The position numbers and the translations under genes are program-made. Positions 1,820 to 56,100 of a stretch of DNA of 64,000 bases are shown in pieces. Source of the DNA: Mobula hypostoma (lineage: Eukaryota); the NCBI RefSeq assembly GCF_963921235.1, contig NC_086097.1:176082001-176146000 (forward strand), read 5' to 3'. The first letter of the stretch is position 1, and the number at the start of each line of letters is the position of its first letter. The notes under the pieces were generated by a model. That model saw only the letters and a list, made by a program, of their open reading frames with translations, ran no database searches and was not told the origin of the DNA.

Positions 1820-3659
<1,840 letters not shown>

Positions 3660-4341
3660 TATATATTCGAAGTGCATGCAAACGGGATTAATTGAGATCA
3701 GAATCTTGACTGGCATGGATGAGTTGAGATGATGAGTTTATTTTTGTGTGGTATTATTCTAACACTTTGAATCTATGAAGCTTTATGGCAAGCTATAAAG
3801 AGATCTTTATTTGTATAGAGATCTAGATTATGCTTTCCATTATAAAAGTGATATTGTTGTTTATTATTTTCCCCTGCCCTCTGACACTCTTTGTCTCTGT
3901 AAGCATTCCATTGATTTATTTTAAACCATTCTCCTTCAGTTCTGGCTGCTTCATCATATCTGATTTAAACCATTCCGCTGCGCTCACCAGGGTGGGAGAT
4001 CTCATTATAAATCACAAAATCCTTACAGAATAAACCATTCCAACGTCAGCAGTATGGGTTCAGCTGTCTCAGACGATGGGTTCCCCTCAATTTATCTCTC
4101 CATCTCACTTTCCCTGTAAGGAAGCGGGGGAGAGGAAACAGAAAGTTAACAACTTGATTACTGGTGGTGAAAATGCTGGAGGTTATTAGCAAAAGCACTT
4201 GGAGAAGAGTGACATAATTGGTCAGATTCAGCACTTAGTAATTGGTTTATTGCTTTAACATGCACTGAGACACAGTGAAAAGCTGTTTATTGTGGCAAAT
4301 CATTCCAACTACAAAAGCATTAAGTACACAAGAACTGCAGA

Positions 4342-4520
4342 ACCTTGTGGCACATTGGGCAGCCATTTTTTGCCATTTCCATTGCATTATTTAATGAGGC
4401 CGGGTTGCTAGCCGAACACTCAACCCAGCACAGATGGAAAGTGTGCAAGGAGTCAGACAGATTCGTACTCGGGACCATTTGCCTCAAAGTCCAGTGCTGA
4501 TGCCACTACATCACCGGCTG
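4342..4520 (-). mobile_element. tRNA-derived SINE (family A)
   Basis: Colinear with the copies at 5122-5279 and 8512-8712; A/B-box-like head. Confidence 0.7.
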
Positions 4521-5121
4521 GTGCATAGTTGGAAAAGGCATTGGCTTATTATTGTCTGATATGATGAGATATGTTGCAAAACTTAGTTTTGTGTGCCATC
4601 CATGCAGATAATTTCAAAATGTAAGTACATTGCAGCAGCACAGGGGAAAGTAATGACAGAATGCAACATATACTGTAGTGTTACATTTACAGAGAAAGTG
4701 TAGGCAGACAGACAAATAACATGCAAGGTCCACAATGGGATAGTTTCTGATGTCAAGAGTTCATCTTTATCATACTAGAAGTCTGTTCAAAAGTTTTATA
4801 ATAGCAAGACAGAAGCTGTTTTTGAGTCTGTTGGTACATGTTCTCTAGATCCCCCTAATAGGAGAGTGGAGAAGAGAGAATGGCCAGGTCCTGGATTGTA
4901 TTGGTTGCTTTCCCGAGGTAGCGGGATGTACGTACAGACAAAGTCAATGGTCTGGGTTGTGTTGACAACTTACTGCAATAACTTGTGGTTAGCCCGGATT
5001 CATGAAAGGGAACCCATGCTTGACAAATCCACTGGAATGTTCTGAGGATGTAATTGACAGAACCAATGGATAAGATGTATTTGGACTTCCAGAAATCCCT
5101 TGATAAAATTTGAGGTGATAG

Positions 5122-5279
5122 TTGTTAGCAGTTTTGTTTGTTTTTTTTTATGAGGCTGAGTTGTTAGCTCAATGCTCAACTCAGCACAGATGGAAAGTAT
5201 GTAAGGAGCCAGCCGGATTCGAACCTGAGACCACTCGCCTTGAAGTCTGGTGCGAATGCCATTACACCACTGACCAGCT
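5122..5279 (-). mobile_element. tRNA-derived SINE (family A)
   Basis: Minus strand reads GGTGTAATGG...GGTTCGAATCC (A/B boxes), then the GAGCTAACAACTCAGCCTC body shared with the other copies. Confidence 0.75.
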
Positions 5280-6644
5280 ACCTCAGTACATGTGCAATAA
5301 CAAACCAATTTACCAATTTAAAACATTAATTTTATTCCTTCTTCAGGCATTTTTCATACCTATACTTTTCACAACTCATTGCCAATGCAGAGGCACAAAC
5401 CCTTAGATCCCTTGAGCAGTGAACACTGCCTGTAACACATAGTCCTGTACTCTACCAAAGTATATCCCTATTCTGTTCCCTATACAAACATGGTTGTGGG
5501 GCTTAGCATTACTTCAAAGCCATTTACAAATTTGTGATTGACATCACTGTTGGATGAATCTCAGCTGGTGATGAGTCAGTGTTTAGGGGCTAGACAGACC
5601 ACCTGGTTGAGTGGTGTCAAAACGAAAACAACTTACTCAATGCCATTGAAACTAGAAAGCAGATTTTTGACTTCAGGAAGGGGAAGGGGGAAACCATGTG
5701 GCTGTCTACATTGGCGTATCAGCAGTGGAGAATCAGCAGCTTTAAGTTCCGTAACGTTAACATGTTGGATGACCTGTTCTGGATCCAGCAGACAGATGCA
5801 ATCATAATGAAGGTGCACCAGACCCTTTACTTTCTTGGGAGATTAAGGAGCTCAAAGTCAAAGTTGACTTTATTGTCATATGCACAAGAATATACTGTAT
5901 TTGCACAGGTGCAATGAACATTTTTATAGCATCCGAGAAGCAGCATTCACAAGAAAAACATAAACCAAACATAAATTATTAACACATTTTACAAGAAAGA
6001 ACAGTGTTTTTAGCACTAAAAGCTTTGTGCATTGTAGTGAAAACTCATGAAAGTGATTGTCGTTTTATCGAAGTGTAGAGATCAGGGTTGTGCCGGTTGG
6101 TTCAAGAACCGACTGGTTAAAATATAGTAGCTGTTCTGAAACTGATGGTGTGAAACTGCAGGCTTCTGTTCCTCCTCCTGCAGTGGGGATCTTTGATAAT
6201 GGATGTTGCCTTCTTGAAGCAGCAGCTCCTGTAGATACTATTGGTGGTGGGGAGGGTCATGCCCGTGATGTACTGGGCTGACAATGTATTCGGTGTAGTA
6301 TATGCTTTGAGTGCTTTATGACCATTCTGCTGAATTTAGAGGGGTGAGGACATCACTGCCCTCTCCTTCACCAACAACAGACCTATCCCACATCAGAGAC
6401 ATTTGTTAGAATTTAGAATGCCAAAGAATCTCCTGCATTTCCCACATTTTCTGTTTTTATGTTGCAGATAAACAAAAACTCGTGAGACCTGTTGCAGGAC
6501 TGGGCATGATTTGCATTGACTTGGAGACCTAGTGTGGCCACACCTGCTGTAGCTGGCAGAAAATATGCAGTAACCTGTCAATGCTTGAAATATAAGACCA
6601 AACACATCCAGCCTATAAGGACTACACCCTGCTGATCTCACACC

Positions 6645-14109: not shown

Positions 14110-14251
14110 GGGGTGTATGGGGTGTATTGGTCCTGACTAAGTATCAGGAAATGCCAATAGCGATTATATAGCTTCTCCCACCCAAGACAACTCCGCCTTC
14201 ATGTAGGACTTAGGTCCGGGTGCACCCTGTCTCGCTGAAGGAGCTCTGTCT
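14110..14251 (+). ncRNA. HDV-like self-cleaving ribozyme (minimal P4, CpG-decayed)
   Basis: Manual fold: P1 GGGGTGT/GCACCCT (14222-28, G1.U wobble); P2 CTCC/GGAG plus AGACA/TGTCT; P3 GCC/GGT; L3 TTCATGTA plus hairpin; J4/2 TGAA. Confidence 0.6.
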
Positions 14252-15747
14252 ATGGCGAATGTTTGGCGCCAGAAAAATAACCAGACCGATGGTGGTGGTG
14301 TCACCTAAAATCACCGAAGTCTCCGGCAGCAGGGAGATGGATTCCAAGCTTTGGTGGAGGATTGTCTTTGTTCAACAACAGCAAAGGTTGGGCGACGTCT
14401 AGTGTATGAATCGCAATTGGGAACACCAATAGAGGTCAAATGCTGTAGTTAGATGAGCACTGCGGCAACAGAAGGCAACGGCAAACCACTGTTGAACTTT
14501 CTGCCTAGTCAATCATGGAAAGAAACAAAAGAAGGAAACCAGACAACGGCGTGAATGGAGTTGAGTCTAATCAACAGAACAACACCTCGCTCGGTAGGGG
14601 TAGTCATGTGCTGCAGGTGACACCAGACCATCATCCAGAGACTGTAAGCAATAGGGAAAGGCTAAGGGTAGCAACATGGAACATCCGTACACTTCACCAG
14701 AAAGGAAAGTTGGACAACACATTAAATGAAATGAAAAGGTTGGAAGTTGATATCTTAGGCCTGTCAGAAATTAGAAATTAGATGGACCGACAGTGGCAAA
14801 TTCACTAAGAATAGTTCTCTGATAGTTCTCTGATAATGTATTCTACAGCGTGTGTATGGAGTTGGAATTATTTTAGTTAAATTAAGGGATAACCCTTTTA
14901 ACATTAGCATAATCCAAGCCTACGCACCAACAAATAATGCAGATGAAGAGGATATCAATAAGTTTTGAAGATCTCGACAGTGCTTATGAGCAATGTAAAT
15001 CTCATGATATAAAACTGGTCATGGGAGATTTTAACACCAAAGTTGGACAGGAAAGGGCCCTTTGGATTAGGAAAGAAAAATGAAAATGGAGAAGGGTTTA
15101 CTGATTGGTGTGTCAGAAACAACCAAGTGACCACCAATACTTGATATAAAAACTATCCATGTAGATTATGTACTTGGATTAGCCCTGGAGATAGAACAAG
15201 GAATCAAATAGATTTCATTACCATCAATGAACACTTTAGAAATAATATCACAAATTCTAAAGCTACCCAGGAGCAGTCTGTGGTTCAGATCATCATCCAG
15301 TAACAGCTACTATTAAAACAAAATTAAAGAAACTGAAACGTGGAAAAAAGAGAAAGTATATGTTGGGAGAACTTAAAAAAGATAGCATACTTAAGCAACA
15401 ATTCAGGACAGCTGTAGAAGAACATTTCAACAAAAACATAACAACACCTATTTGGGACAGATTTAAGTATGCTATACAGCGATCAGCAGAGGAGATAATC
15501 CCAGTACAAGAAATCCAACACACCAACAAGGGGTGGGTAACCCAAGAACTTCTAGATCTGATGGAACAAAGAAGCTTAGTGAAGAATAATGAAGTGCAAT
15601 ACAGAGAGCTAGACAGACAGACCAGACAATTATACAATATTGCAAAGGAAGAATGGCTGAATCAAAAATGCAATGAAGTAGAAGGCCATATTAACAACAG
15701 CAAAGAAATGCACAAGAAAATCAAGGAAATTACTGGAATTAAGAAAC
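14110..15747 (+). mobile_element. RTE-clade LINE 5' portion (5' UTR, APE endonuclease, linker); RT and 3' end absent
   Basis: GAAGGCAACGGCAAACCACT 5' UTR motif; RVATWNIRTL..DILGLSE, IIQAYAPT, MGDFNTKVG, NQIDFI, GSDH APE motifs with stops and frameshifts. Confidence 0.9.
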
Positions 15748-28809: not shown

Positions 28810-29880
28810 GAAGAGTACATAACAGATGATCTCACCTGGTCCCCCAACAACACTTCTTTAGTCAAGAAAGCACAACAGTGTTTCCATGTGCTGTGGAAAG
28901 TGAAGCGGTGAGGCTTCCCACCCCCAGCCCCATCATTCTAACAAATTTTTATAGGATTACAATTGATAGTGTCCTATTCAGCTGCATCACCAGCAGGTTT
29001 GGGAATTGAAAGGCACCTACTTTCAAGGGATGGTGAGGACAGCTAAGAGGATCTTCGTGTTCTCTCTTCCACCCATCAGAGATATTTATCAGGAGCATTG
29101 CATACACAGGACCCTTAGCATTGTCATGGATCCCTCCTATCCATCCCACAATCTCATTGATCCCTACTATCAGGTAGGAGGTACCATAGCACTAGGGCAA
29201 GGACAGCTAAGATGGGAAACAGCTTGTTCCCGGAGGCCGTAAGACTGCTAAGTTGCCTGCCAACACCCAGGTCTCATGTATGAAGTGCCAGTAGCCTTAT
29301 ACAGTTTACTTTTTAACTTGTGTTGTAAATGCACCTCATCATTTGTTAATTTATTTGTGGTGATGTTATTTTATTGTTGCGTGTGAGTTACAGGTACTGT
29401 GTTGTATACTTTAATCCAGCGGCACATTGTTTTGTTTGGTGGTGTACTTTATGTGTTGTGTGTGAGTTACCTGTACTATGTTGTATACTTTGGACCAAAG
29501 GAACATTGTTTTGTTTGGTGGTGTACTTCATGTGTTGTGTGTGAGTTCTCTGTACTGCATTGTACACTTTGGTCCAGAGGAACATTGTTTTGTTTGGTGG
29601 TGTACTTCATGTGTTGTGTGTGAGTTACCTGTACTGTGTTGTATACTTTGGACCAAAGGAACATTGTTTTGTTTGGTGGTGTACTTTATGTGTTGTGTGT
29701 GAGTTACCTGTACTATGTTGTACACTTTGGTCCAGAGGAACATTGTTTTGTTTGGTGGTGTACTTCATGTGTTGTGTGTGAGTTCTCTGTACTGCATTGT
29801 ACACTTTGGTCCAGAGGAACATTGTTTTGTTTGGCAGTGTACAGATCTAGGGATGAGTGACAATAAACTTGAACTTGAAT
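28810..29880 (+). mobile_element. Rex1/Babar-type 3' fragment with expanded 3' UTR
   Basis: DDLTWS..., IDSVLFSCIT remnants; GACAATAAACTTGAACTTGAA tail. Confidence 0.75.
29374..29842. repeat. 79-bp minisatellite, about 6 units
   Basis: Units start at 29374, 29453, 29532, 29611, 29690 and 29769; explains the staggered near-identical ORFs in the track. Confidence 0.95.
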
Positions 29881-32078
29881 AGTAACTGATTGTCACCAAC
29901 AATAAACTGATAATTTCTGTACTTCTTCCTTCGAACATAGAACACAAAACATAGAAGAGTGCAGCACAGGATCAGGCCATTCAGCCCATTGAGTACTAGC
30001 TCAATGCACTGTGATGATGTGATCTGTATGAACAGTAAGCAAGATAATCTTTTCACTGTCTCAGTACATTTGACAATAATAAACCAATTCCAAATCCAAT
30101 TCCAATGTCTGTGTTAGCCATGATGACCGTCTAACATCTAATCTGCCTGCAAAGTTCCCTATCCGTCCATTCCCTGCCTGTTCATGTGTCTGTCTAAGTA
30201 TCTTATATATGTTGCTGATATATCTATTTCCACCACCTCCCCTGCTAGCATGCTCCAGGCACCTGGCACTCTCTGGGTAAAAAAATCTTACCTTGTAAAT
30301 CTCTTTAAACTTTTCTCCTCTAACTTATGCCCTCTAGAATTTGACAATTCCAACCCCATCAAAAGTTCCCATATTTTTCACGACTTAGAATGGAGATGAG
30401 GAGGAATTTCTTTAGCCAGAGGTGGCAAATCTGTGGAATTCTTTGCCTGAGGCAGCTGTAGAAGCTGGGTCTTTATGTATATTTAAGGCAGAGGTTGATA
30501 AATTCTTGATTGGTCAGGGCATGAAGGGATACAGGGAGAAGGCAGGAGATTGGGGTTGACAGGAAAATAAATCAGCCATGATGAAATGGCAGAGCAGACT
30601 CGATAGGTCAAATGGCCTAATTCTGCTCTTATATCTTATGGTCTTAAAGGAGACCAATTAGTGCATTGAATCTTCATCATCTCTCAGAGTTTCCCTATTA
30701 ACCCCATTCCATCTGCAACTCGTTCTCTTTTACTTGCCCATTGACCCTTCGCTGATTGTACTGTCATCCAGCTCCACCAGAGGAGCCATAGAAAACATTC
30801 TAACTGTATGCATAATGACTTGGTATGACAACTGTTCTGCATATGAAGAAAAGCAAGGTTTAAAAACTTTTTACATTCTTAATGTCAATGGTGAATATAT
30901 TCAGTATTGTTAACCCATTTTCGTACATAGCAACATTACCACTTGCATGACCCTCTGGGCTGATGCACCTTTTCATTGAAGAGTGACCCCACCCAATACA
31001 GCCCCTTCATATCTAATAGCAGAAAGAGTCCAAACTGTAGTCATTCCACAAAGAGCCTTTGCATTGCCTGCACTGAACTTCAGTGCACTTCTCCTGAAGC
31101 CTGGATATGCCAGTTGGCACCATTCCCTTACAGATACCTCCCTGTGCTGGAAGACCAGCAAGTTTTGGGCAGACTAGAGGACATCTTGCCCAAAATTCAT
31201 GATCTTTCAGCAGCATGATGTCTGTCTCGGTGAGCCTTGACTTAGCTCAACCCCATGAACAACCCATAGGTCAGAGAGTACTACCTCTCACTATCACTGA
31301 TGTCCCTCTGGTATAGTAATCTTGCTCTGAGGTCTTCAGCTTTATTTTCCAGTGACTGTACGTTTGCCAGCAGGATAGTTAGTTGGTAGTGGAAGTCTAA
31401 GACTGCTTTGTTTCAATTATATCTGTAAGCTTTTCTTTTCTTCTTGACTAGATTTACTACAGCCTTTGTACACCATGATTCCTGTACCCTACTATAATTT
31501 CCCTGTCTCCTTGGAACGTACCTGTGCAGAACTCCACACAAATATCCCCTGAACATTTGCCACATTTCTTCCGTACCTTTCCCTGAGAACATCTGTTCCC
31601 AATTTAAGCTTCCTATTTCCTGCCTGATAGCCTCATAATTCCCCTTACTCCAATTAAACGCTTTTCTAATTTGTCTGTTCCTATCTCTCTCCAATGCTAT
31701 TGTAAAGGAGATAGAATTATGATCACTATCTCCAAAATGCTCTCCCACTGAGAGATCTGACACCTGACCAGGTTCATTTCCCAATACCAAATCAAGTACA
31801 GCCTCTCCTCTTTTAGGCTTATCTACATATTGTGTCAAGAAACCTTCCTGAACACACCTAACAACCTCCACCCCATCTAAATTCCTTGCTCTAGGGAGAT
31901 GCTAATCAATATTTGGGAAATTAAAATCTCCCACCACGACAACTGTGTTATTATTACACCTTTCCAGGATCTGTTTCCCTACCTGCTCCTCGATATCTAT
32001 TGGGCAGCCTAAAAAACACCTAGCAGAGTTATTAACCCCTTCCTGTTCCTAACCTCCACCCACAGAGACTCCATAGAC

Positions 32079-32833
32079 CAGACGTCCCCAAGCTTTTTTG
32101 CACCGCGGACCGGTTTAATATTGACAATATTCTTGTGGACCTGTTGACTGGGGTTGGGGGGTGGTGTTCAAGTAGGGTTAAACTCACCTCAACATGTCTT
32201 TTACAGTTAGAGTTGCCAACTTTCTCACTCCCAAATAAGGGACAAAAGTAGCAGTCAAATCCCAGGACACGTTACCCCAGGAAAGACTACCATGACCATG
32301 AAGCCTTTCGCGGGCACCTGTGTGCGCATATGTGTACATGCCAATTTTTTCTCCACAAATCGGTTTTGCCTTCATCTTCCCAACTACACTGTACATACAT
32401 TATTTCTACTTTATTTAGGCTGTGTATTTATCATATCATTCCTGCTTTTACTATATGTTAGTGTTATTTATTTTCTGTTTTATGTGTTATTTGGTATGAT
32501 TTGTTATGTTTTTTTTGGCTCTGGGAACGCTCAATAATTTTTCCCATATAAATTAATGGTAATTGCTTCTTTGTTTCACGCCATTTCGGCACGAAAGATT
32601 TCATAGGAACGCTCTACCTTAGTGGGGGAAATACAGGACAAGGGGGTGGTCCCATATGGGACAAACCAATTTAGCCCAATATATGGATGTCCTGGCATAT
32701 GCGGGACAGTTGGCAACTCTATGTTCAAGTTCGACAGAGCGTGACAGGGAATGAGGAAAGGTGCAGCTGACTCATATCGTTTCCTCACGGCCTGGGAGCA
32801 CATGATTTGCGGCCCAGTGGCTGGCGACTGCTG
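32079..32833. mobile_element. hAT (Charlie/MER1-like) non-autonomous composite element
   Basis: Perfect 8-bp TSD CCATAGAC (32071-78, 32834-41); degenerate TIRs CAGACGTCCCCAA / CTGGCGACTGCTG. Confidence 0.85.
32173..32721. mobile_element. Nested hAT-type element (TAGRGTT ends)
   Basis: 8-bp TSD TGTTCAAG (32165-72, 32722-29); perfect inverted pair TAGAGTTGCCAAC (32208-20) / GTTGGCAACTCTA (32709-21). Confidence 0.8.
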
Positions 32834-34359
32834 CCATAGACAATCCCTGCATGTCATCCACCTTTTCTGCAGCCGTGACACTATCTCTGATCAACAGTAC
32901 CATGCCCCCACCTCTTCTGCCTCCCTCCCTGTCCATTCTTAACTATCTAAAACCCGGCACTTGAAGTAACCATTCTTGTCCCTGAGCCATCCAAGTCTCT
33001 GTAATGGCCACCACGTCTTAACTCCAAGTACTGATCCATGCTCTGACCTCATCCGCTTTGTTCACAATACTCCTTGCATTAAATAGACACATTTCAAACC
33101 GTTGGTCTGAGCACGTCCCTTCTCTATCACCTGCCTATCCTCCCTCACACACTGTCTCCAAGCTTTCTCTATTTGTGAGCCAACAGCCTCTTCCCCAGTA
33201 TCTTCAGTTCGGTTCTCACCTCCCAACAATTCTAGTTTAAACTCTCCCCAGTAGCCTTAGCAAACCTCCCCGCCAGGATATTGGTCTCCCTGGGATTCAA
33301 GTGCAACTCATCCTTTTTGTACAGGTCACACCTGCCCCCAAAAGAGGTCCCAATGATCCAGAAATCTGAATCCCTGCCCCCTGCTCCAATCCCTCAGCCA
33401 CACATTTATCCTCCACCTCAATCTATTCCTATACTCATTGACATGTGGCACAGGTAGTAATCCCGAGATTACTACCTTTGCAGTCCTGCTTCTCAACTTC
33501 CTTCCTAACTTCCTGTAGTCTGTTTTCAGGACCTCTTCCCTTTTCCTACCTATGTCATTGGTACCAACATGTACCACGACGTCTGGCTGTTCTCCCTCCC
33601 ACTGCAGGAAATTGTGGATGCGATCTGAAACATCCCAGACCCTGGCACCTGGGAGACAAACTACCATCTGAGTTTCTTTTCTGTGTCCACAGAATCACCT
33701 GTCTGACCCCCTAACTATCGAGTCCCCTATCACTACTGCCTTCCTCTTCCTTTCCCTACCCTTCTGAGCCACAGGGCCAGACTCTGTGCCAGAGGCACAG
33801 CCACTGTCGCTTCCCCCAGGTAGGCTGTCCCCCCCAACAGTACTCAAACAGGAGTACTTATTGTTCAGGGGGACAGCCACAGGGGTACTCTCTAGTACAT
33901 GACTCTTTCCCTTGCCTCTCCTGACTGTTACCCACTTGTCTGACTCCCGTGGCCCCGGAGTGACCATCTGCTTATAACTCCTTTCTATCATCTCCTCGCT
34001 CTCCCTGGACAGACGAAGGTCATCGAGCTGCAACTCCAGTTCCCTAACATGGTCCCTTAGGAGGTGCAGCTTGACATATTGGGCGCAGGTATGGCCAACC
34101 AGGGGGCTGGGATACTCCAGGACTTCCCACATCTGACACCGAGAACAGAACACTGGCCTTGCACACATACTTCCTTTTGAAGGACCCATGATTATCCTAG
34201 AATCATAGAAATCTACAGCCCATTACAGGCCCTTTGGCCCACAATTTTGTGCTGACCATGTAACCTACCCAAGAAACCGCATAGCCTTCTATTTTTCTAA
34301 GCTCCATGTACCTATCTAAGAATCTCTTAAAAGACCCTATTGTATTCACCTCTACAACA

Positions 34360-50426: not shown

Positions 50427-50929
50427 ACATGTCACCATTTACAACCCTGAGATTAATTTTCCTGTGGGAATACTCAGCAAATCTGTAGAATAGTAACTAC
50501 AACAGAGTCAATGAAAGATCAAGTGGTGTGCAAAAGACAACTGTGAAAATGCAAATATAAATAAATAGCAATAAATAATATGTGATAACAAAATAAAGAG
50601 TCCCTCAAAGAGAGATCATTAAAGAGGAACATCTCAATGGATGGCTAACTGAGTGTAGTTATTCCCTTTTGTTCAAGAGTCTGATAGTTGAGGGGTAATA
50701 ACTGTTCTTGAACCTGGTGATGTGAATTCTGAGGCCCTTACCTGATGGCAGCAGTGACAAAAGATCATGGCCTGGGTGGTGGGAATCTCTGATGATGGAT
50801 GCTGCTTTCCTGTGGCAGTGTTTCATGTAGATATGCTCAATGGTTGGGAGGGCTTTAGCAATGATGTACTGGGCCAAAACCACTAATTTTGTAGGAGTTT
50901 CCATTCAACAGCATTCTATACCAAGCCAT

Positions 50930-51120
50930 GGGGTGTATGGGGTGTCAGGGAGGGGTAGCACCATTGGTGGGGAACATGTCGTGTCCTTTTCAAGGCGGTT
51001 AGTCCACCTTCGGTCCCCACCTGGCACTCAGCTATCACTTTGTGGCTCCTCGTAGCTGTTTGCATGTGACAGAGGCCACATCCCGGGCAACGGCTTCGAC
51101 AAGCCGGCTAAACCAGGTGA
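50930..51120 (+). ncRNA. HDV-like self-cleaving ribozyme
   Basis: P1 GGGGTGT/ACATCCC (51078-84); P2 TCACTTTGT/ACCAGGTGA; P3 GGC/GCC; L3 TCCTCG..; P1.1 CC/GG; GCAA; P4 CGGCTT/AAGCCG; J4/2 G-C(51108)-TAA. Confidence 0.8.
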
Positions 51121-51502
51121 GGGTAGCCGATGGGTCTCAAACCCTCGGTGAGATAGGGAGTTGTCTATCTCAGCATGTGAAGACAGACTCCGGCGGATTG
51201 AGCGGATGAGACCACTGGAAGGTCCAACAGTCAAGAAGGCGGTCTCTGCAAGCATTGTGGAATGTGTAGAGCAGGACAAGACACAGAAAACGTCCTGGTC
51301 ATCCACTGCACCTAGTCCCATCTCCAGCCGTCTCGACTCTGTCTTGCCACTGGATCCAGATGGGAATTGGGAAGAGAGAGTGAGGCTGACGCTGCGCAAC
51401 TCTCCCTCACTTAAATCCAAATCACGCGCTAGTCTCGACACCATCGCAATGGTGTCGAGGTCCTCATTGACATTGACGATGGATGAACATCACATCATCA
51501 TC
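50931..51502 (+). mobile_element. Non-coding non-autonomous RTE-type retroposon, full length
   Basis: Perfect 13-bp TSD ATACCAAGCCATG (50918-30, 51503-15); (CAT)n tail; 5' start shared with the RTE at 14110; inserted in a minus-strand Rex1 fragment (~50065-52460). Confidence 0.85.
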
Positions 51503-53123
51503 ATACCAAGCCATGATGCAGTCAGTGAAATCACTGCCCACTGCACTTCTATAGAAGTTTGTTAAAGTTTTAGGTGTCAAGCTGAAGTTCTGCAGTTTCT
51601 GAAGGAAGTATAGGTTCAACCATGCTTTCTTCAAAATTGCATTTATGTGCTGACTCCAGGACAGATCCTCTGAAAATGGTAACACACAGGAATTTAAAAT
51701 TACTAACCTTCTAAACTTCTGATCCTTTGATGAGGGCTGGCTCATGGATCTCCGGTTTCCCTCTCCTTCCTCTACAATCAGTTCCTTGGTCTTGCTGACA
51801 CTGAGTGAAAGGTTGTTGTTAGGACATCACCTAGTCAAATGTTCAATCTCCCTTCTGTATGCTGATTCATCACTACCTTTGATTTGGCCTAAAAAAAGTG
51901 GTGTTATCAGCAAATTTGAGTATGGTATTGGAGCTGTGCTTAGCCACGCAGTCATTGGTGTAAAGCGAGTAGAACAGGGGGCTACACACACAGCCTTGTG
52001 GTGTACCTGGGCTGATGGAGATTGTGGAGGGAATGTTGCCAATCCGAACTGACTGGAGAAGACAGGAAATCTAGGATCCAATTGCACATGGAGGTATTGA
52101 GGACAAGGTATTGGAGTTTATTGTTTAGCTTTGAGGGGATAATAGTATTGCATGCTGTGTAGTCAACAAAGAGCACCCTGATATATGCATCTCTGCTGTA
52201 CAGATGCTCCAGGATTGAGTGACGAGCCAATGAAATGGCATCTGCTCTGGATCTGTGGCTCTAGTAGGCAAACTGGAGTGAACTCAAGCTTCCTCTCAGG
52301 CAAGGGCTGTTATGTTTCATCACCACCCTCTCAAAACACTTCATCACTGTGGATGTAAGTGGAAATGGTCTATAGTCATTGAGGCAGGTCACCATGCTCT
52401 TCTTGGGCACTGGTATAATTGAAGGCAGCTTGAAGCAGGAGGGTACCACACACTGCCAAAATGAGAGGTTAAATACTATGAGGAAGTGAGAAATTAAGTA
52501 CATTGAGGTAGTAAAGAGAAACCAGAATGTAGAATACAGTACTGAATAAAACTGAGATGATATTGCATACGTCAGTACCATGCACTAGGAGTACTCAGAG
52601 GCCCTGTTTAAACTGGGGAACAAGACCACTACATCACATGTCATGGCATATGATATGAAATTTGTCTAGTGTCAAAACATAACAATCACTATAAATTACA
52701 AGGATAAATAAACAAAGCAAATAAAAACAAAGTGGTTTTCTTGGGTTCATGAACTGTGCAGAAACCTGATGACTGGGAGGAAGAAGCTGTTCCTAACTCA
52801 TTGAGTGTGGATGATCAGACTCCCTGAACCTCCTCTTTTTTATGCACAATTGATAAGGAGAACTTGACACACCTACTGTACACAAGCCCCCACATCTCTG
52901 GCTGACCCTGTAATTTCAGTCTCTGAGACTGACATCAGGGCATCCTTCAAGAAGTTAAATCCATGAAAAGTGTCCGATCCAAACAGGGTACACGCTCAAG
53001 TACTTAAGATTTTTGGAGACCAACTGGCTGAAGATTTTACAAACATATTCAATCTCTCACTCCTGTGGTCTGAGGTTCCCACCTGCTGCGGAAAGTCATC
53101 TATTCTACCAGTGCCCAAGGTGA

Positions 53124-56100
53124 ATTTCTGATTTTTGGAAAAAAGGCAGTTTTTACCACTCGGGGTAAAAGAGAGGCAAGACTGTGTAGGCGCATGACGT
53201 CAGCTAGTAGAGCGCGAAAGGTTTAAAAAGAAGACCGCCATATCCAGTGGGCAGTGTTCGGAGCGGGCAGCGGAGTGAGAGTCAGCAGAGTGATAGGGCT
53301 TTGGCTCAATGGTCTTAGGCGGTAATGGGACAAGGTGAGGTAGGTTTACTGGAGTCATTTGCGGAAAGGAGGAAGTATGTGTGTGAGGCCAGTTTTCTGT
53401 GCTCGGTGTCAGATGTGGGAGGTCCTGGAGTCTCCCAGCTTCCTGGATGGCCATATCTGCACCCAGTGTGTCGAGCTGCAACTCCTAAGGGACTGAGTTA
53501 GGGAACTGGAGATGCAGCTCGATGACCTTTGTCTGGTCAGGGAGAGTGAGGAGATGATAGAAAGGAGTTAAGGCAGGTGGTCACACTGGGGCTACGGGAG
53601 ACAGACAAGTGGGTCACAGTCAGGAGGGGCAAGGGGAAGAGTCAGGTACCAGAGAGTACCCCTGTGGCAGTACTCCTTGACAATAAGTACTCCTGTTTGA
53701 GTACTGTTGGGGGAAGCAACAGTGGCCGTACCTCTGGCACAGAGTCTGGCCCTGTGGCTCGGAAGGGTAGGGAAAGGAAGAGGAAGGCAGTAGTGATAGG
53801 GGACTCGATAGTTAGGGGGTCAGACAGGTGATTCTGTGGACACAGGAAAGAAACTCTGATGGTAGTTTGTCTCCCAGGTGCCAGGGTCCGGGATATTTCA
53901 GATCGCGTCCAAGATATCCTGCAGTGGGAGGGAGAACAGCCAGAGGTCGTGGTACATATTGGTACCAATGACATAGGTAGGAAAAGGGAGGAGGTCCTGA
54001 AAAAACAGTACAGGGAATTAGGAAGGAAGTTGAGAAGCAGGACCGCAAAGGTAGTAATCTCAGAATTACTGCCTGTGCCACGTGACAGTGAGAACAGGAA
54101 TAGAATGAGGTAGAGGATAAATACGTGGCTGAGGGATTGGAGCAGGGAGCAGGGATTCAGATTTCTGGATCATTGGGACCTCTTTTGGGGCAGGTGTGAC
54201 CTGTACAAAAAGGATGGGTTGCACTTGAATCCCAGGGGGCCCAATATCCTGGCGGGGAGGTTTGCTAAGGCTACTGGGAAGAGTTTAAACTAGAATTGTT
54301 GGGGGGTGGGAACCGAACTGAAGAGACTGGGGAAGAGGAGGTTGGCTCACAAACAGAGAAAGCTCATAGACAGTGCGAGAGGGAGGATAGGCAGGTGATA
54401 GAGAAGGGATGTGCTCAGACCAAAAGTTTGAGATGCATCTATTTTAATGCAAGGAGTGTTGTGAACAAAGTGGATGAGCTTAGAGCGTGGATCAGTACTT
54501 GGAGATATGATGTGGTGGCCACTACAGAGACTTGGATGGCTCAGGGACAGGAATGGTTACTTCAAGTGCCCAGTTTTAGATGTTTCAGAAAGGACAGGGA
54601 GGGAGGCAAAAGAGGTGGGGGCGTGGCACTGTTGATCAGAGATAGTGTCATGGCTGAAGAAAGGGTGGACGCCATGGAGGGATTGTCCACGGAGTCTCTG
54701 TGGGTGGAGGTTAAGAACAGGAAGGGGTCAATAACTCTGCTGGGTGTTTTTTATAGGCCACCCAATAGTAACAGGGATATCGAGGAGCAGATAGGGAAAC
54801 AGATCCTGGAAAGGTGTAATAATAACAGAGTTGTCGTGTTGAGAGATTTTAATTTCCTAAATATCGATTGGCATCTCCCTAGAGCAAGGGGTTTAGCTGG
54901 CGTAGAGTTCGTTAGATGTGTTCAGGAAGGTTTTTTGACAGAATATGTAGATAAGCCTACAAGATGAGAGGCTGTACTTGATTTGGTATTGGGAAATGAA
55001 CCTGGTCATGTGTCAGATCTCTCAGTGGGAGAGTATTTTGGAGATAGTGATCATAATTCTATCTCCTTTACAATAGCATTTTGGAAAGAGATAGGAACAG
55101 ACAAGTTAGAAAAGTGTTTAATTGGAGTAAAGGGAATTATGAGGCTATCAGGCAGGAAATTGGAAGCTTAAATTGGAAACAGATGTTCTCAGGGAAAGGT
55201 ATGTAAGAAATGTGGCAAATGTTCAGGGGATATTTGCGTGGAGTTCTGCATAGGTACATTCCAAGGAGACAGGGAAGTTATGGTAGGGTACAGGAACCTT
55301 GGTGTACAAAGGCTGTAATAAGCCCAGTCAAAAAGAAAAGGAAAGCTTACAAAAGGTTCAGAGAGCTAGGTAATTTTAGAGATCTAGAAGATTATAAGGC
55401 TAATAGGAAGGAGCTTAAGAAGGAAATTAGGAGAGTCAGAAGGGGCCATGAGAAGGCCTTGGCAGGCAGGATTAAGGAAGACCCCAAGGCATTCTACAAG
55501 TATGTGAAGTGCAAGAAGATAAGACATAAAAGAATAGGACCTATGAAGTGTGACAGTGGGAAGGTGTGTATGGAACCGGAGAAAATAGCAGTGGTACTTA
55601 TTGAATACTTTACTTCAGTACTCACTATGGAAAAGGATCTTGGTGATTGTAGTGATGACTTGCAGCAGACTGAAAAGCTTGAGCATGTAGATATGAAGAA
55701 AGAGGATGTTGCTGGATCTTTTGGAAAGCATCAAGTTAGTTTAAGTCACCAAGACCGGATGAGATGTACCGCAGGCTACTGTGGGAAGCGAGGGAGGAAA
55801 TTGTTGAGCCTCTGGCGATGATCTTTGCATCACCAATGGGGACGGGAGAGGTTCTGGAGGATTGGGGGGTTGCGGATGTTGTTCCTTTATTCAAGAAAGG
55901 GAGTAGAGATAGCCGAGGAAATTATAGACCAGTGAGTCTTACCTCAGTAATTGATAAGTTGATGGAGAAGATCCTGAAAGGCAGGATTTATGGATATTTG
56001 GAGAGGTATAATATGATTAGGAATAGTCAACATGGTTTTGTCAAGGGCAGGTTGTGCCTTATGAGCCTGATTGAATTTTTTGAGGATGCGACTAAACACT

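Follow-up and report, generated by a model that had tools for sequence, protein, structure and literature searches.

A predicted HDV-like ribozyme with an additional hairpin in L3 at the 5′ end of a non-autonomous RTE-type retroposon of Mobula hypostoma

HDV-like ribozymes were reportedly found at the 5′ ends of RTE-clade LINEs by Ruminski et al. in 2011. In three papers (PMC5786205, PMC3774820, PMC6765202) such 5′ ribozymes of RTE-clade LINEs are described with the cut predicted at the 5′ junction. The element described here is similar in having a 5′-terminal ribozyme that would release it from a host co-transcript. It differs from these LINEs by a 21-nt hairpin insert in L3, by being non-autonomous and by its thousands of copies. 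RTESINE1/2, WALLSI3, MAR4 and Bov-A (PMC5786205) are built like our element, with the 5′ part and the 3′ tip of an RTE LINE joined and with neither an ORF nor a Pol III head. The passages of that paper describe no ribozyme fold for them, whereas in our element the full fold has been traced. R2 SIDE ribozymes have been shown to cleave according to PMC3414825, with which PMC6765202 and PMC3774820 agree, and both R2 SIDEs and NARTc/RIME (PMC3383444) combine, as our element does, a 5′ HDV-like ribozyme with the 3′ end of a partner LINE. R2 SIDEs are restricted to rDNA and were called rare, in contrast to the dispersed element of AP-endonuclease type studied here, and NARTc has a promoter as well as a ribozyme. 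5′ ribozymes of RTE elements and of their internally deleted derivatives are already in print.

The element and its predicted ribozyme fold

The window, i.e. the whole stretch of DNA analysed, is 64,000 nucleotides long. Judged by its sequence, the element at 50930 is an internally deleted, bipartite non-autonomous derivative of an RTE-type LINE, with the following parts:

50918..50930 (+), left TSD of 13 nt, its last base common to G1
50930..51504 (+), RTE-type retroposon, non-autonomous and bipartite, about 565 nt long with a tail in addition
51161..51434 (+), body with homology to an autonomous RTE-type LINE in its 5′ UTR (74% to copy L155)
51434..51459 (+), inverted repeat where the 5′-derived and 3′-derived parts join
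51464..51504 (+), 3′ tip with homology to the terminal 3′ sequence of the LINE, then a short CA/CAT tail (start approximate)
51503..51515 (+), right TSD

The window copy was inserted into an old minus-strand LINE fragment, which we take from its motifs to be L2-like. In the genome searched (3.48 Gb, 200 contigs) there were 4293 first-look candidates, 40 of which were scored, and a 32-nt stretch of the core had 1116 exact matches. The original prediction called the ribozyme copy near-intact, but at 94.7% to the consensus of 30 copies it is the lowest of the 30; the 29 other copies of these best 30 are about 96–98% identical to the consensus. An exact TSD of at least 7 nt was found in 43 of 57 full-length copies, and its first base was A in 31 of the 43; TSDs of the dispersed family are 6–14 nt long. 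The copies end in CAA, CA or AACC tails and some are truncated at the 5′ end, so that TSDs, a microsatellite tail and 5′ truncations, the marks of target-primed reverse transcription, are all present. A-starting TSDs with CAA-type tails have been reported for animal RTE elements (PMC6007223). There are no tRNA genes in the window and no exact B box in copy L012, and a tRNA-, 5S- or 7SL-derived Pol III head was found neither in the window, nor in L012, nor in an Rfam scan of the element.

Several observations were made alongside. One locus (L106) holds a head-to-tail pair of copies and another (L109) a copy with an inverted 5′ part. Words of the element are present in sequencing runs X1–X24, which bear 11 organism labels, six of them at 0.37–0.57 of words, and two of four runs compared cover nearly the whole element; therefore the family is not confined to the Mobula hypostoma genome. 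The window also contains a 79-nt tandem array at 29272-29903 and, at 31424-34175 and 53370-55351, a long repeat in two inverted copies that agree to about 92%.

The predicted ribozyme occupies the first part of the element:

50930..50936 (+), P1 5′ strand, predicted cut 50929/50930 (from the fold and cross-family pairing)
50937..51034 (+), structured J1/2 domain with a closing helix of 10 pairs, 50940-49/51020-29 (from the constrained fold)
51035..51043 (+), P2 5′ strand
51044..51046 (+), P3 5′ strand
51047..51053 (+), L3 core with the U20 equivalent 51047, P1.1 CC 51048-49 and the G25 equivalent 51052
51054..51074 (+), L3 insert of 21 nt: A, hairpin 51056-60/51068-72, G
51075..51090 (+), P3 3′ strand 51075-77, P1 3′ strand 51078-84, P1.1 GG 51085-86, J1.1/4 GCAA 51087-90
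51091..51106 (+), P4, 6 pairs (51091-96/51101-06)
51107..51120 (+), J4/2 with the predicted catalytic C51108, then P2 3′ strand 51112-20

The helices that had been drawn by hand in the original prediction were all recovered. P1 has 7 of 7 pairs in the window copy, including one G–U, and is entirely Watson–Crick in the consensus; P2 has 8 of 9 pairs and P4 6 of 6, while P3, P1.1, the GCAA junction and J4/2 (GCTAA) with C51108 in the predicted catalytic position are found where they had been placed. Taken together they form a nested double pseudoknot, and the parallel drawn to the order and motifs of the genomic HDV ribozyme stands. The equivalents of U20 and G25 are T51047 and G51052, those of C21 and C22 the P1.1 CC 51048-49 (L3 residues are numbered as in bioRxiv 2022.09.22.508989), and the purine G1 is paired at the base of P1 (G50930–C51084). 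The element shares with genomic HDV two C–G pairs in P1.1, the GCAA junction, U20/G25 and the catalytic C in J4/2, and with drz-Agam-2-1 a large structured J1/2 with a closing helix. It differs from both in that L3 has 28 instead of 8 nt, G1 pairs with C and not with U, and P2 has a bulge or mismatch beside P3. As predicted, J1/2 is structured (−43.0 kcal/mol folded alone), and the second GGGGTGT (50939-45) pairs with 51020-29 as part of the 10-pair helix. The first GGGGTGT is the better P1: the constrained fold has −66.4 kcal/mol as compared to −55.3 kcal/mol with the second copy, a difference of 11 kcal/mol. According to PMC4908430, a stable J1/2 helix, such as the P1.2 helix of drz-Agam-2-1, accelerates HDV-like ribozymes.

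The nested MFE of the motif is unremarkable (z = −0.52) and hence uninformative. The motif exceeds chance in a search with our purpose-written descriptor, which found one core in the window versus three in 60 resampled single strands; this descriptor was composed after the motif was seen and overlooked the element at 14110 described below. Rfam scans gave no HDV-family match for the window and the element and no relevant match for families C and F; the test is insensitive here because the canonical ribozyme of family C is also unmatched. In a nested-only partition function the P1 5′ strand of the window copy pairs with the P2 5′ strand (~0.9), and by this model the window copy may misfold in that way. 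We lean slightly towards the view that this somewhat decayed copy retains cleavage.

5′ ends of the family and of its partner LINE

Family 5′ ends had been expected to concentrate at GGGGTGT, and this was borne out. They lie within 4 nt of G1 in 19 of 29 copies chosen by their 3′ half (without the window copy) and in 20 of 29 copies chosen by the core pattern (without one duplicate). Choosing copies by the 3′ half, and by the core pattern in genome order, limits the selection of full-length ones, and the core-pattern set by design excludes copies truncated beyond the core. Starts at positions 5–14 were found in four copies of each set, and starts further in were found in six and five copies, respectively; one late starter (L038) is an internal deletion with its true beginning near G1. 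Families C, D, E and F likewise start at P1. The claim that the left TSD finishes on G1 is true of the window copy, but as a family rule it does not hold and amounts to a 1-nt microhomology. In the 43 copies with an exact TSD, its left repeat stops upstream of G1 in 19, abuts it in 8 and overlaps it by 1–4 nt in 16. In this variable junction the element resembles R2 elements cleaved at their own 5′ end, as described in PMC3774820. The family end is thus G1, while the exact overlap in the window copy is microhomology. The lower mutation rate of the core (1.5% vs 2.2% in the body) was dropped as evidence, some copies having been selected by exact core match.

That an HDV-like ribozyme sets the element's 5′ end is well supported by sequence comparison, and from this we infer cleavage. 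It is probable that the element spreads by read-through transcription, self-cleavage before G1 and trans-mobilisation via the 3′ tip that it has in common with a LINE; these three steps we infer from a sequence compatible with the ribozyme structure, the compensation between families, the clustering of 5′ ends and the ends shared with the LINE, all of which are observed. The first ~190 nt would fold as an HDV-like ribozyme in a copy transcribed from upstream, and the predicted self-cut just before G1 would strip the flank and leave a unit-length RNA. The RTE endonuclease/reverse transcriptase would then recognise the common 3′ tip and insertion would occur by target-primed reverse transcription, the 5′ end being joined via short microhomology or added bases.

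A partner LINE was found by protein search. The route via PF20049 was rejected as it ends at another RTE-like LINE (L091), which apart from a 31-nt 3′ match in L090 is not homologous to the element; a protein search from L091, however, led to the young sister family A, which has a 1129-aa endonuclease–RT frame. L091 itself has an unbroken 1018-aa endonuclease–RT frame at 3260-6313 (−) and a GAA tail. Family A (copies L154 and L155) is 77% identical to the element in its 5′ UTR over consensus positions 232-505 (282 nt) and 84% identical over the last 31 nt (consensus 535-565), and the two also have the 3′ half of the ribozyme in common. Another LINE copy (L260), 75% identical over consensus 1-498, has the element's L3 insert too and leads into an endonuclease frame. 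A direct autonomous parent was not found in the genome searches, where the nearest LINEs are 75–77% alike. The partner has a single long APE–RT frame with a C-terminal zinc finger; by the long single frame, the CAA tail and the A-starting TSDs it is a putative RTE-type LINE.

The ribozyme core is kept in seven family A copies. Two of these begin at P1, one with a 12-nt TSD ending there and the other without a clean TSD. The remaining five lack P1 bases 1–3 and have upstream sequence in common; in three of them the TSDs lie 445, 608 and 1059 nt upstream, and in the other two the 3′ end was not found. Loss of P1 together with a 5′ extension is what loss of cleavage would predict, although the five copies may all go back to a single chimeric source that had gained a new promoter. 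The extensions of 445–1059 nt inside the TSDs (L232, L234, L235) contain a C-rich minisatellite and, in L235, the apparent final part of a C2H2 zinc-finger gene, with an inversion in L232.

The original prediction took self-cleavage to make an internal promoter unnecessary, but an internal Pol II promoter could also start the RNA at G1, with the ribozyme only trimming read-through transcripts or being vestigial. In L1 an extra G at the 5′ end is the mark of capped-RNA copying, and such a G before G1 is rare in our copies (4/48, background 22%). The P1-broken family A copies retain almost the entire 5′ sequence, but their starts are scattered far upstream, which argues against a promoter at G1, whereas the missing tRNA head and exact B box rule out Pol III only. 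On the other hand, the first 15 nt are identical in the element consensus, in most D copies and in family F, which exceeds the demand of pairing. Two papers point the same way: promoter and ribozyme lie within the same 77 nt in L1Tc/NARTc (PMC3383444), and bipartite LINEs are held very likely to be Pol II-transcribed (PMC5786205). Considering both sides, we regard a promoter-defined end as unlikely, though it is the strongest competitor of a 5′ end set by self-cleavage.

Captured leaders are frequent in family A. Among 40 distinct loci, 24 carry a CpG-rich leader that joins within P4 and another 6 one of host-mRNA type, while 6 have the full core, 1 the core's 3′ half and 3 are truncated. As 30 of the 40 loci carry other leaders, the ribozyme is unnecessary for the spread of family A. 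The CpG-rich leader (L157, L161, L167, L176, L180 and others) contains tandem ~40-nt units and a TATA-like stretch, and its sequence looks like promoter capture. Leaders of mRNA type occur in L154, where positions 301-504 hold a Glyoxalase_4 frame, and in L156, L159, L168 and L191. The frame in L154 presumably resembles methylmalonyl-CoA epimerase, and the leader of L191 contains what we take to be an OTUD5-like stretch. In plant RTEs 5′ switching has been reported (bioRxiv 2022.11.04.512097); as far as we have searched the literature, lineages exchanging a ribozyme for captured leaders are new.

Structure across families and the L3 insert

Covariation had been proposed as a check of the fold. 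It is seen between families, where P1, P2 and P4 are compensated, and it is weak within the family because the copies are ~97–98% alike and degenerate once inserted. Families A and C share this fold, their L3 being a plain 7-nt loop. P1 pair 6 is G–C in three families and A–U in another, P4 pair 2 is G–C or C–G, and one P2 position is C–G, U–A or G–C depending on the family, while P3 is invariant and hence uninformative. In the alignment A1 (35 copies from 3 families) 95.6% of the P1 and P4 cells are paired as compared to 36–53% in slid controls, and there are 28 double changes vs 12.6 in shuffles; these double changes are two family-level events (P1 pair 6 and P4 pair 2) and kinship inflates the statistic. 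An A–U pair at P1 position 1 was discounted since the A of L231 belongs to its TSD, and G6A without a change of its partner occurs in 5 of 42 parsed copies. P2 was compared by anchored parsing because MAFFT misplaced the P2/P3 5′ strands of the short-loop families (alignments A1 and A2); family A was left unparsed in this way (0/7) and read separately. The predicted catalytic C is retained in the parsed copies of families C, D and E, with the note that it was required by the parser and by one copy set. On balance, the predicted P1, P2 and P4 helices are supported by compensatory changes, which represent few independent events.

Two of these families deserve a separate description. Family C (L207–L229) is a ~465-nt non-autonomous element with a GAA tail and a canonical short-loop ribozyme, and its copies L213 and L217 run on into an endonuclease-like frame. 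Family D (L249, L254, L263, L266) is a ~530-nt non-autonomous element, 78–80% alike over the first 381 nt; its 3′ half contains a motif also present in the 5′ UTR of the 14110 family, and by its sequence family D is apparently a chimera of two RTE lineages.

While the helices around L3 agree with the original prediction, the size of L3 does not. The loop closed by P3 (51047-74) has 28 nt and not 6–8, consisting of an L3 core of 7 nt and then an insert of 21 nt at 51054-74, the unusual part of the motif, which had been left out. In the insert hairpin (51056-60/51068-72) the outer pair is broken in the window copy and the consensus has one pair more. A standard L3 of 7–8 nt, as in HDV and CPEB3, is therefore absent from the element; we file the motif as an HDV-like variant because the sister families A and C carry a 7-nt loop. 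An alternative P3 via GCT 51055-57, giving an 8-nt L3, would detach P3 from P1 and was rejected because families A and C show P3 closing on the P1-adjacent GCC. The extra hairpin lies after L3 position 26, 3′ of U20/G25 and the P1.1 residues, where it is probably tolerated. A degenerate core pattern with the insert has 2677 genome matches vs none for the reversed control; by our count, other families make up 22 of the first 100 matches listed. A similar pattern without the insert, slightly different in other respects, has 58 matches. Among close families 94.6% of the hairpin cells are paired with one double-changed pair, which is equalled in 41 of 500 shuffles and is not significant alone.

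A second, different element in the window contributes to this question:

14110..14252 (+), RTE-like element with an HDV-like fold, CPEB3-type L3/P1.1 and an unrelated L3 hairpin at 14206-17

This family F has 206 genome candidates and begins with the same ~15–16 nt as the element at 50930. All 9 copies examined, namely that of the window and 8 of the 40 scored, have 7/7 pairs in P1 and 3/3 in P3. The fold was set by hand-placed anchors and its J4/2 register is less certain; a relaxed scan of the family did not find the correct fold. Family F is like CPEB3 in the 7-nt L3 core UUCACGU and in a weak P1.1 of one C–G and one U–U pair, and differs from it by the L3 hairpin insert, an almost absent P4, a long J1/2 and by being a mobile element. 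Its hairpin is flanked by A and G and lies at the same L3 position with unrelated sequence, having 4/4 pairs in all nine copies. This is stronger support for the L3 insert than the covariation among close families. Further along, within 14110-14760 (+), there are a GAAGGCAACGGCAAACCAC motif near 14472 and the start of an endonuclease-like frame near 14670.

There are reasons to ask whether the insert kills or cripples catalysis, so that the fold persists as a relic that stabilises the 5′ end or binds a protein. L3 has 7–8 nt in HDV and CPEB3 (bioRxiv 2022.09.22.508989) and lines the active site (PMC4908430), and a ribozyme fold is able to shield an RNA 5′ end (PMC13708176); the weak hairpin covariation among close families adds to this. 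Nevertheless, families with the insert have retained not only starts at G1 but also the catalytic C, U20/G25 and P1.1, they far outnumber the short-loop matches, and family F has a different hairpin in the same place. We consider crippled catalysis improbable and prefer a ribozyme that tolerates its insert.

Still less credible is a start of the transposing RNA elsewhere than at the predicted cut site, be it at a U one base upstream or at the second GGGGTGT. The base before G1 is T in 32 of 48 copies (P ~5e-8 against a background of 29%) and in 12 of 16 family C copies, the enrichment being noted for families N, C and D, and some copies begin at 7–14 (8/58 at 5–14). But T at −1 is far from universal, and of the 24 copies in which the TSD abuts or overlaps G1, 16 have a target base there, as expected if an A added to the cDNA anneals to a target T. 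Such an added A would explain the −1 T, a templated U being the alternative; nucleotide addition by the reverse transcriptase may be involved in the enrichment. As for the second repeat, it is locked in its 10-pair helix, far worse as P1, and absent from families A and C. Finally, a chance arrangement in a GC-rich repeat would agree with the unremarkable MFE and the lack of an Rfam match, but it is hardly credible given the compensatory changes, the family F topology on a different sequence, the empty reversed control and P1 at the 5′ end in every family sampled that far.

Meaning of the probable ribozyme-defined 5′ ends

Within the literature searched the recurring L3 hairpin is new; no description of it or of the element family was found, judged by titles and abstract openings, and a prior description may exist. 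We see about even chances that the RTE-type elements described here make up a structural subclass, i.e. active HDV-like ribozymes with A-hairpin-G at a fixed L3 position, of unrelated sequence on HDV-type and CPEB3-type cores, unseen by Rfam, scattered in thousands across one genome and with sisters switching to captured leaders. The A-hairpin-G module may have a function of its own, e.g. as a folding aid or protein contact. If the insert-bearing form cleaves, the HDV-like fold is widened at a position usually limited to 7–8 nt, search models with a short L3 undercount such ribozymes, and L3 is a natural site to graft hairpins.

The element offers a direct test of a point raised in PMC5786205, namely why few LINE clades yield ORF-less bipartite elements. 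In family A, ribozyme-defined 5′ ends can be compared with leader-captured ones inside a single family, which bears on RTE-based gene-writing templates. For the host, thousands of intronic or intergenic copies could cleave its transcripts.
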